A stretch of DNA of 64,000 nucleotides, taken from NCBI GenBank assembly GCA_963662405.2, contig CAXXKT010000001.1:32001-96000 (forward strand). The letters are read 5' to 3'. Both the position numbers and the translations under genes were made by a program. The notes under the pieces are model-generated. The model saw only the letters and a program-made list of their open reading frames with translations. It did not search any database and had not been told where the DNA came from. This DNA comes from Syntrophales bacterium (GTDB lineage: Bacteria > Desulfobacterota > Syntrophia > Syntrophales > UBA2210). Shown here piece after piece: positions 60,419 through 64,000 of this stretch (position 1 is its first letter; each line of letters opens with the position of its first letter).

Positions 60419-61630
60419 ATGTCGGTATATTTGTGGGAGGGAACAACCAGAAGGGGGGAAAAGAAAAAGGGTGAAATGGAGGCAGCGGATGAAAGCAGTG
60501 TGAGGATCCAGCTCCGCCGTCAGCGAATCAAACCCGAGAATATAAAGAAAAAACCCAAGGATCTCTTTGAGAACATTCCTTTCCTTCAGCAGAAGGTCAA
60601 AGAGCATGATGTGGTGGTCTTCGCCAGGCAATTCGCCACGATGATCAACGCCGGGCTCCCCATCATTCAGTGTTTGGACCTCCTCGGTGAAGAGGAAAAA
60701 AATCCTTCTTTTGCAAAGATCATCAAAACGATCAAAGATGATATCGAAGGAGGATCTTCGCTCACGGATGCCCTCAGCCAATATCCTGACGTCTTTGACG
60801 AACTGTTCGTCAACCTGATCACTGCCGGTGAAGCGGGCGGCATCCTGGATGTGATCCTCAATCGTCTTTCCGCATATATGGAAAAAGCGATAGCACTGAA
60901 ACGGAAAGTCAAGGGAGCTATGACGTACCCGGTTACCGTTCTCATTGTTGCCGTAGCGGTGGTCATCCTCCTCCTTTACAAGGTTGTCCCTGTTTTCGAG
61001 GAAATGTTTTCAAGCATGGGATCGGCCCTCCCGGGCCCGACACAGTTTCTTGTCGATCTGAGCCGTTTCGTTCAAAACAATATCCTCTATATACTGGGGG
61101 GAATCGCCCTCTTCGTCTTTGTCTTTCGGAGATATTACAAAACCCGGCGGGGGAGACTTCAGGTAGATCGTTTTGTCCTCAAGCTACCCGTATTCGGCAT
61201 CTTACTAAAGAAAGTCGCCGTAGCAAAATTCTCACGGACCCTCTCCACGATGATGAGCAGCGGCGTTCCCATCCTTGACGGACTTGAGATCGTCAGCAAG
61301 ACAGCGGGGAACAAGGTGATCGAAAAGGCCCTGATGAACACCAGAAAGAGCATAAGTGAAGGGAGGACGATCGCCGCGCCCCTTGCGGAAGCGGACATCT
61401 TTCCTTCCATGGTCGTCTCCATGATAGCGGTGGGTGAAAACACCGGCGCCCTCGATGCCATGTTGGAAAAGATAGCCGATTTTTACGATTCCGAGGTGGA
61501 TGCCGCGGTGAGTGCCTTGACATCACTGCTTGAACCCATCATGATGGTGTTTCTGGGAGGTGTTGTGGGGGGGATGATCGTCGCCCTCTATCTGCCCATC
61601 TTTTCGATGGCAGGAGCCGTCGCCGGGTAG
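60419..61630 (+). CDS. pilC: type IV pilus platform protein (GspF/PilC family)
   Basis: RQFATMI.AGLP, AGE.GG.LD, A.TYP, VGE.TG.LD.ML, LYLPIF. Confidence 0.9.
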   Translation: MSVYLWEGTTRRGEKKKGEMEAADESSVRIQLRRQRIKPENIKKKPKDLFENIPFLQQKVKEHDVVVFARQFATMINAGLPIIQCLDLLGEEEKNPSFAKIIKTIKDDIEGGSSLTDALSQYPDVFDELFVNLITAGEAGGILDVILNRLSAYMEKAIALKRKVKGAMTYPVTVLIVAVAVVILLLYKVVPVFEEMFSSMGSALPGPTQFLVDLSRFVQNNILYILGGIALFVFVFRRYYKTRRGRLQVDRFVLKLPVFGILLKKVAVAKFSRTLSTMMSSGVPILDGLEIVSKTAGNKVIEKALMNTRKSISEGRTIAAPLAEADIFPSMVVSMIAVGENTGALDAMLEKIADFYDSEVDAAVSALTSLLEPIMMVFLGGVVGGMIVALYLPIFSMAGAVAG

Positions 61631-61642
61631 CAATTCATAAAA

Positions 61643-61719
61643 TGGTCGGGATGGCGCGATTTGAACGCGCGACTCCTGCGTCCCGAACGCAGTGCCCTAC
61701 CAGGCTGGGCCACATCCCG
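61643..61719 (-). tRNA. tRNA-Pro(CGG), CCA encoded
   Basis: CGGGATG/CATCCCG acceptor stem, CTGCG-TTCGGGA-CGCAG anticodon arm, GTTCAAATC T-loop, ACCA end. Confidence 0.97.
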
Positions 61720-61871
61720 ACAGCCCCATTGACTATATAATTTATCTCGAAATGTCCATAAAAAAGTGAACCATGCCGTGTGCAATCTGCGTTAAAGGTG
61801 ATGTCACGACTTGTCTGATGCGGATTTTCATGATATTGGTCAGCCAACGCTCTACAGGAGGAATCGGTTCC

Positions 61872-62288
61872 GTGATCATTTATGACCTCAAGTGTGAAAA
61901 TAGCCACACTTTCGAAGGCTGGTTCAACGACAGAAATGCCTTTGAAAATCAGCGAAAGAAAAATCTCGTCACCTGTCCGGTGTGCGGCAGTTCGAGCATA
62001 GATATCGTCCCTTCAACCATTACGGTCATGGGAAAGGGGACCGAGCGACTCAATGATTCACGTAAACGAGAACTCTCCCCCCTGAAGGCCCTCCAGATGT
62101 TCCACGAGTATGTCGATAAGACATTCGAAGATGTGGGAAGCCGGTTCGCCGAAGTTGCCCTGCGGATCCACGCCGGCGAGGAAGACCACAGAAACATCAA
62201 GGGAACCACGACGGAACGGGAAGAAACCGTCCTCACTGAAGAAGGCGTCCCTTTCGTCAAGATCCCCGTACCGAAGTTCGACAGCTGA
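61872..62288 (+). CDS. DUF1178 family protein
   Basis: AGGAGG then GTG; IYDLKC...HTFEGWF, CPVCGS, EDVG.RFAE.A..IH. Confidence 0.88.
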   Translation: MIIYDLKCENSHTFEGWFNDRNAFENQRKKNLVTCPVCGSSSIDIVPSTITVMGKGTERLNDSRKRELSPLKALQMFHEYVDKTFEDVGSRFAEVALRIHAGEEDHRNIKGTTTEREETVLTEEGVPFVKIPVPKFDS

Positions 62289-62313
62289 CTCCGATGCAAT
62301 CGGGGGGCTCCCC

Positions 62314-64000
62314 ATGAAAAAACGCTATAACAATATTCTTGATCTGATCGGGGGTACCCCTCTCGTTGAGATCCGCCGTTTAAATCCCCACAAACACGTC
62401 ACCATCTATGCCAAAATGGAGGTGATGAATCCCGGTGGATCAATCAAGGACCGAACCGCTCTCGCTATGATAGAGAGGGCCGAGGAGAGGGGGGACCTCA
62501 CTCCTGGAATGATCATCCTCGAGGCAACCAGCGGCAACACCGGCATCGGTCTTGCGATGGTCGCGGCAGCAAAGGGGTATCGCCTGACCCTGATCATGCC
62601 CGAGTCGGCCAGCGAAGAGCGGAAAAAAACAGTAAAGGCCATGGGCGCCCACCTGCATCTGACCCCGGCCGAGCTGGGAACCGACGGCGCGATCGAGGTG
62701 GCGTACGAGATGCTCCGTGCTCATCCCGAACTATATTTCGCCACCGATCAGTTCAACTCCGAAGACAACATCATGGCCCACTACCACGGAACGGGGGAAG
62801 AGATCTGGGAGCAAACCGACCATCAGGTTACCATGGTCGTGGCAACCCTCGGGACATCCGGGACCGTTATGGGCATCTCCCGGAGGCTTAAAGAATACGG
62901 CAAAGATATAAAAATCGTCGGGGTTGAACCCTATCTCCACCACAAGATTCAGGGGCTCAAGAACATGAAGGAGTCATACCGGCCGGGTATCTTCGATAGG
63001 AACCTCCTGGATGAAAAGGTCAACATCCTGGATGAAGACGCCTTTGAGATGGCCCGGGCCCTGGCACGCACCGAGGGACTCTTCGTCGGCATGAGCTCCG
63101 GTGCGGCCATGCACGTGGCCCTCGAAAAGGCCCGGGAGATGAACGAGGGGGTGATCGTGGTCATCTTCCCCGACGGCGGTGAGCGGTATCTCAGCACATC
63201 CCTCTTTTCGGACCGTGAAGAGGTTTCTCTTCACCTGTACAACACGCTCACCCGGACCAAAGAACCCTTCAAACCGCGCAACGCCGATCAGATCCTGATG
63301 CACTCATGCGGACCAACCATGCACGAGGTGCCGCACATCGGGACATACCGCCGCTTCATCGTGGCGGACATGGTCGTCCGCTATTTGGAATTCAAGGGAT
63401 ATACGGTCAAACATGTCTCCAACATCATAGACCTGGCCGACCGATCCGTCCGCGGAGCCGAGAAGGCAGGCATGGATATCGGGGCCTTTACCCGCGGGCA
63501 CACCGAGACCTTTTTCAACGATCTCGCCACGCTCAATATCAATCATGATAATACCTACCCAACGGCGAGTGAAAACGTCGACGCTATGATCCAACTGACG
63601 GAGCAACTCGTGGAGAGAGGGTATGCTTACGAAAAGCTGCGGTCCGTGTATTTCGACATATCACGGCTCGAAGGCTACGGGACTTTGTCAAATATAGACT
63701 TGGCACACGTCCGCCATTCTCAGACAATCGACCAAGACGATTACGCAAAGGACAGCCCCGTCGACTTCAATCTTCTCAAGCGGTCTACTCTGGCTGAGCT
63801 GAAGGAGGGAATCTATTTTAAGACAAAGTGGGGAAACACCAGGCCCAGTTGGCACCTCGAGTGCGCAGCCCTCTCCATAAAGTATCTGGGGGAAACCTTT
63901 GATATCTACCTCAGTGGTACGGACATCATCTTCCCGCACTGCGAGAACGTCATGGCGATCGGCAAGGCCGCAACGGGGAAAAATATCGCGAACTACTGGC
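62314..64000 (+). CDS. cysteine synthase fused to a divergent cysteinyl-tRNA synthetase-like domain (runs off window)
   Basis: Uninterrupted frame of at least 562 codons, translated by hand. IGGTPL, NPGGSIKDR, EATSGNTG, GTSGT and ERYLS are followed by LYNTLTR.KEPF.P, CGPT, HIGT, RPSWHLEC and FPHCEN. Confidence 0.92.
   Translation, partial: MKKRYNNILDLIGGTPLVEIRRLNPHKHVTIYAKMEVMNPGGSIKDRTALAMIERAEERGDLTPGMIILEATSGNTGIGLAMVAAAKGYRLTLIMPESASEERKKTVKAMGAHLHLTPAELGTDGAIEVAYEMLRAHPELYFATDQFNSEDNIMAHYHGTGEEIWEQTDHQVTMVVATLGTSGTVMGISRRLKEYGKDIKIVGVEPYLHHKIQGLKNMKESYRPGIFDRNLLDEKVNILDEDAFEMARALARTEGLFVGMSSGAAMHVALEKAREMNEGVIVVIFPDGGERYLSTSLFSDREEVSLHLYNTLTRTKEPFKPRNADQILMHSCGPTMHEVPHIGTYRRFIVADMVVRYLEFKGYTVKHVSNIIDLADRSVRGAEKAGMDIGAFTRGHTETFFNDLATLNINHDNTYPTASENVDAMIQLTEQLVERGYAYEKLRSVYFDISRLEGYGTLSNIDLAHVRHSQTIDQDDYAKDSPVDFNLLKRSTLAELKEGIYFKTKWGNTRPSWHLECAALSIKYLGETFDIYLSGTDIIFPHCENVMAIGKAATGKNIANYW

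Follow-up and report, generated by a model that had tools for sequence, protein, structure and literature searches.

A predicted cysteine synthase–cysteinyl-tRNA synthetase fusion protein of Syntrophales with a remodelled cysteine and zinc pocket

The fusion gene

The gene described here lies at the end of a 64,000-nt stretch of the genome of a Syntrophales bacterium (GenBank assembly GCA_963662405.2, contig CAXXKT010000001.1; G000:C1:32001-96000), called the window below. It is predicted to encode a single 769-aa protein in which a CysM-type cysteine synthase is followed by a full-length paralogue of cysteinyl-tRNA synthetase (CysRS). The gene continues beyond the end of the window, and the full-length protein (P0001, 769 aa) was read from the genome (L001:814-3120). 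The parts that fall within the window are:

62314..64000, + strand: fusion gene, from the open reading frame and its translation; cut by the window end, full gene at G000:C1:94314-96623 (769 aa, P0001)
62314..63213, + strand: CysM-type cysteine synthase domain dependent on pyridoxal 5′-phosphate (PLP), residues 1-300; Pfam PALP, 246.7 bits, residues 9-287
62941..62973, + strand: synthase loop HKIQGLKNMKE, residues 210-220
63223..64000, + strand: CysRS-like catalytic domain (Rossmann fold and connective peptide, CP), from residue 304 to the window end and on to residue 625

The start codon is most likely the ATG at 62314 (MKKRYNN...), because the resulting length matches that of the orthologues (about 769 aa). 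An alternative ATG at 62110 would overlap the preceding gene, which ends with a TGA at 62286-62288. Ahead of ATG 62314, at a distance of 7 nt, there is a G-rich stretch, and the frame contains no stops. On the C-terminal half, Pfam recognizes tRNA-synt_1e (271 bits, residues 319-622), DALR_2 (658-710) and the CysS_C anticodon-binding domain (720-766), the last two of which fall outside the window. A preliminary description of this DNA had asked about the KMSKS motif and the anticodon-binding domain past position 64000. Past that point the anticodon-binding domain is present with its conserved residues intact, and the KMSKS motif reads KMSRS (K269R), with Arg577 in all 114 orthologues and Lys in 130 of the 131 canonical-type sequences defined below.

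The preliminary description had also left room for this being the genome's only cysS. It is not, since a canonical cysS sits elsewhere in the genome (G000:C1:1913903-1915369; 556 bits to TIGR00435) and carries the motifs HIGH, NFTDVDDK, DFVLWK, RPGWHIEC, DIHGGG, HHENEIAQS and KMSKS. The CysRS-like part of the fusion shares 34% identity with this protein. The fusion is a paralogue of the housekeeping CysRS and not its replacement.

Residues kept and changed in the CysRS-like half

Residues were numbered by a HMMER alignment of the protein's last 470 residues with E. coli CysRS (1li5_A, E 2.7e-83) together with manual counting. A word-indexed search listed 120 relatives with 61-99% identity, and the 114 with lengths of 740-800 aa were used as orthologues. 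Named relatives are labelled 'cysteine--tRNA ligase' or 'cysteinyl-tRNA synthetase' and come from Syntrophales, Deltaproteobacteria and Thermodesulfobacteriota metagenome-assembled genomes. For comparison with canonical enzymes, an exhaustive search gave 20,316 proteins at E <= 0.001, and the 150 best cluster representatives were aligned with P0001 and the genome's own CysRS. Twenty rows were set aside by eye as paralogue-type on the basis of loss of W184, loss of Q241, and KMSRS or worse. The remaining canonical-type set, the genome's own CysRS included, holds 131 sequences. Counts at W184, Q241 and KMSKS are partly circular, these positions having served for the split; T68, H235 and E238 were not used for it.

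Alignment with 1li5_A confirmed the retention of Cys28, Cys209, His234 and Trp205 described earlier, and every motif change listed there (HIGT, TMH, NIIDLADR, DFNLLK, RPSW, DIYLSG, HCENV and AIG) is present. The main positions are:

63307..63309, + strand: Cys332 (E. coli Cys28), zinc ligand, kept; codon TGC; C in 111 of 114 orthologues
63334..63345, + strand: HIGT (E. coli HIGH, 37-40); H341 and G343 in 114 of 114; position 344 is T in 67, S in 30, N in 17, never H
63427..63429, + strand: Ile372 in place of E. coli Thr68; of 114 orthologues, 107 have I and 6 have V; T in 131 of 131 canonical-type
63763..63780, + strand: DFNLLK (E. coli DFVLWK; W184L); L488 in 113 of 114; W in 130 of 131 canonical-type
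63841..63864, + strand: RPSWHLEC (G204S; Trp205 and Cys209 kept), from the HMMER alignment and the orthologue and canonical counts
63901..63924, + strand: DIYLSGTD (H224Y, G225L, G226S; G227 and D229 kept); S534 in 112, G535 in 113 and D537 in 114 of 114
63934..63963, + strand: PHCENVMAIG (H234 kept; H235C, E238V, Q241I, S242G); C543 in 113, V546 in 107, I549 in 114 and G550 in 114 of 114

Trp205 corresponds to W513, Cys209 to C517 (codon at 63862) and His234 to H542 (codon at 63937). Relative to 1li5_A the fusion is changed at Y33H, H40T, T68I, D71A, K73R, V182N, W184L, G204S, H224Y, G225L, G226S, H235C, E238V, Q241I and S242G, and also, beyond the list in the preliminary description, at Y26H, W194F, G201T, S210A, M212L and H256A. 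Three zinc ligands, Cys28, Cys209 and His234, are kept, while the fourth, Glu238, is Val in 107 of 114 orthologues and Glu in all 131 canonical-type sequences. The signatures of the ATP site persist in modified form, as HIGT, KMSRS and the G..D of DIYLSGTD. H337 (Y33H) occurs in 113 of the 114. The derived states are fixed among the orthologues; position 532 (E. coli H224) is divided between Y (55) and H (54), with F in 5. At W184, the wider paralogue family has L, F or M. We take Thr68, Glu238, His235 and Trp205, from the E. coli CysRS structures, to act in cysteine and zinc binding; a search of open-access papers for Thr68, Trp205 and Glu238 gave none that states such roles. With these roles, the residues that hold the cysteine substrate and the zinc would carry fixed, clade-specific replacements.

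According to PMC10655014, the enzyme (CARS) has four PLP-binding lysines, K73, K76 and K269 among them; in E. coli CARS, K73 and K269 are reported to stand at the start or end of the two PLP-binding motifs. A persulfide synthase of the CARS type was considered for the CysRS half and judged unlikely, since at least two of the four lysines named there are replaced: the equivalent of K73 is Arg in 103 of 114 orthologues and that of K269 in all 114, and the K76 position is variable, with K in only 38 of 114. In P0001, Arg at residues 377 (window 63442-63444) and 577 (L001:2542-2544), in place of K73 and K269, keeps the charge and makes a Schiff base impossible.

Comparison with canonical CysRS sequences

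The fusion's residue was found in none of the 131 canonical-type sequences at Y26, T68, G204, H224, G226, H235, E238 and S242, in one at Q241, in one at K269 and in four at Y33. The possibility, raised in the preliminary description, that the substitutions are common in active CysRS does not hold for six key changes, T68I, H235C, E238V, G204S, G226S and Y26H, each absent from all 131 representatives. Position 40 is N in 96, H in 35 and T in none of the canonical-type sequences, and position 225 varies among G, T, A, C and S; Pro is often found at 30 and 36. Since no form is commoner than HIGN and position 225 is variable, HIGH to HIGT and G225L are weak signals on their own. It was an overstatement to treat HIGT and the G225 change of DIHGGG to DIYLSG as abnormal, given that HIGN and DIH(T/A/C)GG are common in canonical-looking CysRS.

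Seventy-one positions are at least 90% conserved in the canonical-type set, of which the fusion-clade consensus keeps 53 and alters 18. All 18 altered positions fall within the catalytic core (residues 330-577). In residues 599-763, all 10 conserved positions are kept.

These counts bear on the idea that the protein is an ordinary second CysRS, a bifunctional enzyme that channels newly made cysteine onto tRNA-Cys and tolerates the substitutions. It passes the TIGR00435 equivalog (cysteine--tRNA ligase, EC 6.1.1.16) with 380.6 bits versus a cut-off of 340. HIGN-type and DIH(T/A/C)GG variants are normal in CysRS, and a PALP-CysRS fusion with canonical motifs, P0134, exists among the canonical sequences. 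Six substitutions that no canonical-type sequence shares, one of them at a zinc ligand, speak against it. So does the survey of genomes, in which five candidates for the fusion as sole CysRS yielded no reasonably complete example. In each of the five the best cysS match was the fusion, but on inspection they showed pieces of a canonical gene at the ends of contigs, a canonical gene split in two (G029, 99% complete), or a completeness of 75-93%, and no case was therefore found where the fusion must do the charging. We consider an ordinary second CysRS improbable.

Selection and predicted structure

Ratios of nonsynonymous to synonymous substitution (dN/dS) were calculated by NG86 on codon alignments of six same-genus genomes. 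Three of 15 pairs were usable (dS 0.3-0.5); the other 12 were left out because dS was near or above 1, or saturated. In the fusion, dN/dS was 0.066-0.097 for the synthase half, 0.092-0.114 for the CysRS-like core and 0.18-0.20 for the C-terminal part. The housekeeping cysS gave 0.082-0.104 for its core and 0.19-0.26 for its C-terminal part. The two cores are similar, and the constraint on the paralogue therefore matches that on the essential enzyme.

An AlphaFold2 model built with 49 sequences had a mean predicted local distance difference test (pLDDT) of 84.2 and a predicted template modelling score (pTM) of 0.65. Low confidence is limited to residues 208-224 (pLDDT <50), the linker at 299-303 and residues 467-481. 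The halves of the model match CysRS and CysM structures: Foldseek placed the CysRS-like half on 1u0b_B (CysRS-tRNA, TMt 0.83) and 8qhp_A (TMt 0.91), and the synthase half on CysM 2bhs_A (TMt 0.93, 45% identity). The earlier suggestion of clustered changes in an intact fold, as opposed to decay, is borne out by changes that are lineage-fixed in 114 orthologues under purifying selection (core dN/dS about 0.1).

Some members of the wider family have no catalytic motifs at all, as might be expected if the CysRS-like half were a decaying, functionless relic of a duplicated cysS. Here, with dN/dS of about 0.1 in both halves, 114 orthologues (61-99% identity) with fixed derived states, a stop-free frame and a predicted fold that is intact, we find a relic scarcely credible.

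The synthase half

The N-terminal half passes the NCBIfam cysKM subfamily model (TIGR01136, 363.5 bits versus a cut-off of 344.15) and falls under the equivalog cut-offs of cysM (369.2 versus 394.2 bits) and cysK (320.1 versus 350.95 bits). Among solved structures it is closest to E. coli CysM (2bhs_A, E 6e-79). The PLP-lysine motif GSIKDR (K45), TSGNTG (T72-G77) and GMSSGAA (S261-A265) are invariant in a 49-row alignment. The loop HKIQGLKNMKE hardly varies among fusions, whether near or distant, and by manual count on the alignment its K216 aligns with R210 of E. coli CysM. A loop of the form H.IQGLKNM.E was also seen in about a dozen of 56 fetched stand-alone cysteine synthases (L071-L084, records of named metagenome-assembled genomes), from Nitrospiraceae, Methanosarcinales, Bacteroidales, Bathyarchaeia and others; it is unlike the loops of E. 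coli CysM and CysK.

Spread of the fusion family

The cysS model matched in 119 of 121 genomes of the order, with at least two matches in 103 of the 121. The typical pair consists of one match of 550-590 bits and one of 390-410 bits in a 770-800-aa frame. The fusion was found at E <= 1e-100 in 23 of 25 relatives. The remaining two, of 100% and 96% completeness, showed no fusion at this threshold; both have a canonical cysS, which is consistent with the fusion being dispensable there. In one relative (G029) the canonical cysS is split into two frames, and in two relatives there is a third CysRS-like copy (298-310 bits) whose frame is broken by stops; the loci concerned are L043 (G029:C54:5523-6849), L048 (G029:C44) and L044 (G075:C155).

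Across the phylum, at least 98 of the 301 genomes sampled had a paralogue-type match (E <= 1e-110). Fusion is the normal state, since 96 of 99 phylum matches lie in frames of at least 740 aa. At the fusion loci of one genus (L136, L137 and L138, in G318, G403 and G376) the open frame around the match holds one in-frame TAG each. A quick maximum-likelihood tree of 63 rows under LG+G4 placed 17 rows of the paralogue type, among them P0001, on one side of a branch with an SH-aLRT of 99. P0134 (768 aa), whose CysRS half is fully canonical (HIGN, NITDVEDK, DFVLWK, RPGWHLEC, KMSKS), falls among canonical CysRS in this tree and could be an independent fusion or the ancestral state.

The 30 best phylum fusions are near-canonical. 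They keep T68 (30/30), E238 (29/30) and C28 and C209 (30/30 each), and show only the family-wide changes, namely W184 to L or F, G226S, Q241I and an extra Arg after HIGx; exact KMSRS is found in 18 of the 30. Nineteen distant full-length fusions, from records named Desulfobacterales, Desulfobulbaceae, Desulfovibrionales, Caldimicrobium and others, have decayed ATP motifs (H341 kept in 9 of 19, G343 in 8, K574 in 10, S578 in 2) and have partly lost the zinc cysteines (C332 kept in 15 of 19, C517 in 14). All 19 keep R599, D665, R731, D744, R747, G754 and D759. By manual count, R731, R735, W740, D744, R747 and D759 are the equivalents of E. coli R423, R427, W432, D436, R439 and D451, in the Pfam CysRS anticodon-binding domain. 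From this conservation, the CysRS scaffold should still read tRNA-Cys family-wide.

The combination of T68I/V, E238V and a small residue at S242 was found only in the Syntrophales clade and a few relatives (L056, L059, P0162, P0184). The relatives that share E238V and T68I/V have also lost Cys209 (L059, P0162, P0184) or HIGH (L056). The picture for the Syntrophales clade is intermediate: the cysteine and zinc pocket is rebuilt at positions that do not vary in true CysRS enzymes, and the ATP signatures and zinc cysteines are strictly kept.

Because these features are strictly kept in the clade, an enzyme of altered chemistry is a serious rival to the binding role favoured below. Its zinc pocket would adenylate cysteine or another thiol amino acid from the CysM-type domain, for example S-sulfocysteine or cysteine persulfide, for transfer to tRNA-Cys or another acceptor. 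The conserved ATP-site residues and zinc cysteines, decayed elsewhere in the family, would suit such an enzyme, as would a dN/dS equal to that of the housekeeping core. With its ATP and tRNA parts preserved and its amino-acid pocket altered, the protein shows what a switch of specificity usually looks like. The CysM-type synthase has a basic residue at the position of CysM R210, and the near-canonical phylum fusions, which keep T68, E238, C28 and C209 with KMSRS, may themselves be active. However, Glu238 and Thr68 are invariant in the 131 canonical-type sequences, the nearest relatives with E238V go on to lose Cys209 or HIGH, and the second KMSKS lysine is Arg in 114 of 114 orthologues. Nor are the catalytic motifs among the features conserved family-wide, and outside the order no gene for an alternative acceptor is conserved beside the fusion. 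On balance we think altered chemistry rather unlikely, though it is the main rival. A narrower version, in which the Syntrophales paralogue is a synthetase of new specificity that loads a non-cysteine thiol amino acid produced by its own CysM-type domain (such as cysteine persulfide or S-sulfocysteine) onto tRNA-Cys, we hold to be quite improbable.

Genome context

A stand-alone cysK is present on contig 3 (L008:5945-6832, minus strand; TIGR01139 366.3 bits versus a cut-off of 350.95), with an IS110-family transposase gene about 3 kb away (L008:1624-2787, minus strand). ARAGORN predicted 49 tRNA genes, including one tRNA-Cys(GCA) and one tRNA-Sec. In this genome no protein exceeded the cut-off for SepRS (best 28.8 versus 380.65 bits), SepCysS (37.7 versus 365.25) or CysE (39.6 versus 210.65). 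CysE was likewise not found in any of 8 sampled genomes of the same family, and is patchy in the order (62 of 121 genomes at E <= 1e-20). With a stand-alone CysK and no CysE, the source of activated serine is perhaps O-phosphoserine. The absence of CysE was considered as an explanation of the fusion and rejected, since CysE co-occurs with the fusion in many families (f7 8/8, f24 5/5) and there is no clean anticorrelation.

A PLP β-replacement enzyme fused to a tRNA-Cys-reading scaffold, in a genome and family where CysE was not found, might point to tRNA-dependent formation of cysteine, in which the CysRS-like part holds aminoacyl-tRNA-Cys and the PLP domain converts the residue in the manner of SepCysS. 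Yet SepRS and SepCysS were not found in the genome, a stand-alone CysK and a canonical CysRS are present, and the PLP domain is of the normal free-substrate CysM type. This mechanism seems very improbable to us.

The neighbours of the fusion are a DUF1178 gene, a pilC-like gene and nth. The DUF1178 zinc-ribbon gene (window 61773-62288, + strand; Pfam 137.4 bits) ends 25 nt before the fusion start. Within the order it precedes the fusion at 19 of 19 loci, but among distant fusion loci at only 1 of 23; for the latter reason we attribute the arrangement to local synteny and reject DUF1178 as a functional partner. A tRNA-Pro(CGG) gene (61643-61719, minus strand) lies between the pilC-like and DUF1178 genes. 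A leader RNA upstream of the fusion was also sought; Rfam over 61000-64000 gave only this tRNA-Pro and a chance snoRNA match, and the candidate was dropped.

Function of the CysRS-like half

HisZ, a paralogue of histidyl-tRNA synthetase (HisRS), controls HisG, and in GCN2 uncharged tRNA is read by a HisRS-like domain. By analogy, our preferred but tentative reading is that the CysRS-like part is quite possibly a tRNA-Cys- and ligand-binding module that couples its own synthase to tRNA-Cys. Such a module would no longer be a general Cys-tRNA ligase. It would bind tRNA-Cys, probably with ATP and a thiol as well, and the state of tRNA-Cys would set how active the attached cysteine synthase domain is, or where it is directed. 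A tRNA-Cys-binding role linked to cysteine synthesis is suggested because the family conserves the synthase and the tRNA-reading scaffold and not the adenylation motifs. The preliminary description had offered altered specificity and a sensor as alternatives. Across the family, the lost ATP motifs taken together with the kept anticodon-domain residues would favour tRNA binding; within this clade, the strictly kept HIGx, KMSRS and zinc cysteines leave a catalytic role plausible.

Several points weigh against a binding module. In this clade H341, G343, K574-M-S-R-S578, D537, C517 and H542 are invariant or nearly so. This retention, set against decay in the plainly dead lineages, therefore suggests a continuing use of ATP and a thiol ligand in this clade, possibly in catalysis. 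A three-ligand zinc site of Cys, Cys and His also serves the active ligase MshC, and the fusion still passes the NCBI cysS equivalog cut-off. Binding of tRNA is predicted from conserved residues. The circularity at W184, Q241 and KMSKS described above has also to be counted here.

A defined interface between the two halves is only weakly supported by modelling. Co-folding of the synthase with the CysRS-like domain gave a score of 0.35, versus 0.00 for the best of 3 controls, and the runs agreed in at least 93% of contacts with a partner pLDDT of at least 88. In calibration, 116 of 157 solved complexes attained this mark, as did 2 of 215 mismatched pairs; at 0.60 or under, just 18 of the 157 solved complexes attained it, along with both of the mismatches that passed.

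The family is widespread, is labelled in databases as an ordinary tRNA ligase and is apparently unstudied. No paper on a cysteine synthase-CysRS fusion was found in the open-access full-text literature. The accessible parts of two papers on cysteine-encoding systems (PMC8762117, PMC5424206), of one on aminoacyl-tRNA synthetase (aaRS)-like proteins (PMC2922099) and of a 2022 review of aaRS paralogues (PMC9437257) do not mention it. About a third of the sampled genomes of a major anaerobe phylum carry the fusion (98/301, a lower bound). Annotation, and the metabolic models that depend on it, may be wrong, because the named records seen all read cysteine--tRNA ligase or cysteinyl-tRNA synthetase. 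If the coupling idea is true, this would be a bacterial example of a tRNA reader that derives from an aaRS and is connected directly with the enzyme producing the amino acid of that aaRS. If the protein instead has a new specificity, it would represent a dedicated route for a modified cysteine into proteins, or tRNA-bound sulfur chemistry. The family forms a natural series, from near-canonical pockets through the remodelled pocket described here to fully dead copies, and shows a synthetase being retired into a new role.

Comparison with known systems

With E. coli CysS (1LI5, 1LI7, 1U0B; TIGR00435) the fusion shares the Rossmann core, the CP insertion, DALR_2 and CysS_C, as well as Cys28, Cys209, His234 and Trp205; the equivalents of R423, R427, W432, D436, R439 and D451 are also kept. 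It differs in being joined to a cysteine synthase, in being a paralogue beside a real cysS and in forming a separate clade, and it carries T68I, E238V, H235C, Y26H, Y33H, W184L, G204S, G226S, Q241I, S242G and K269R. Its N-terminal half resembles CysM (E. coli 2BHS, Salmonella 2JC3) in the PLP-lysine motif, the TSGNTG loop and the SSGAA motif, but falls under the cysM cut-off and has the invariant HKIQGLKNMKE loop and a 470-aa CysRS-like extension.

The likeness to HisZ and GCN2 is one of analogy only: in each, a non-charging aaRS paralogue is coupled to an enzyme that deals with its own amino acid, and senses either that amino acid or the uncharged tRNA. HisZ and GCN2 belong to another aaRS class and family and have no sequence relationship to the fusion. 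In the fusion the partner is covalently joined and is the last biosynthetic enzyme, and the ATP motifs of the clade are still conserved.

MshC (Cys:GlcN-Ins ligase; 3C8Z, 8HFM) is also a CysRS-derived paralogue, one whose role lies outside translation. Alignment indicated a related core (E 7.5e-34; Foldseek 8hfn TMt 0.81); the fusion reached 177.5 bits against a TIGR03447 cut-off of 485.1. The match to the MshC structure ends at residue 323 of the 470-residue CysRS-like part, and the fusion has anticodon-binding domains and occurs in Desulfobacterota, not Actinobacteria.

The accessible part of the 2022 aaRS-paralogue review (PMC9437257) names only MshC and CysRS* as CysRS paralogues. As described there, CysRS* of some Desulfobacterales is a second, divergent CysRS that charges a SelC-like tRNA with Cys, has no anticodon-binding domain and is genetically coupled to SelC*/SelB*. 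On that description, both CysRS* and the fusion are second, divergent CysRS proteins of the same phylum. The fusion differs in having no SelC*/SelB* neighbours, in keeping its anticodon-binding domain and in being joined to a synthase.

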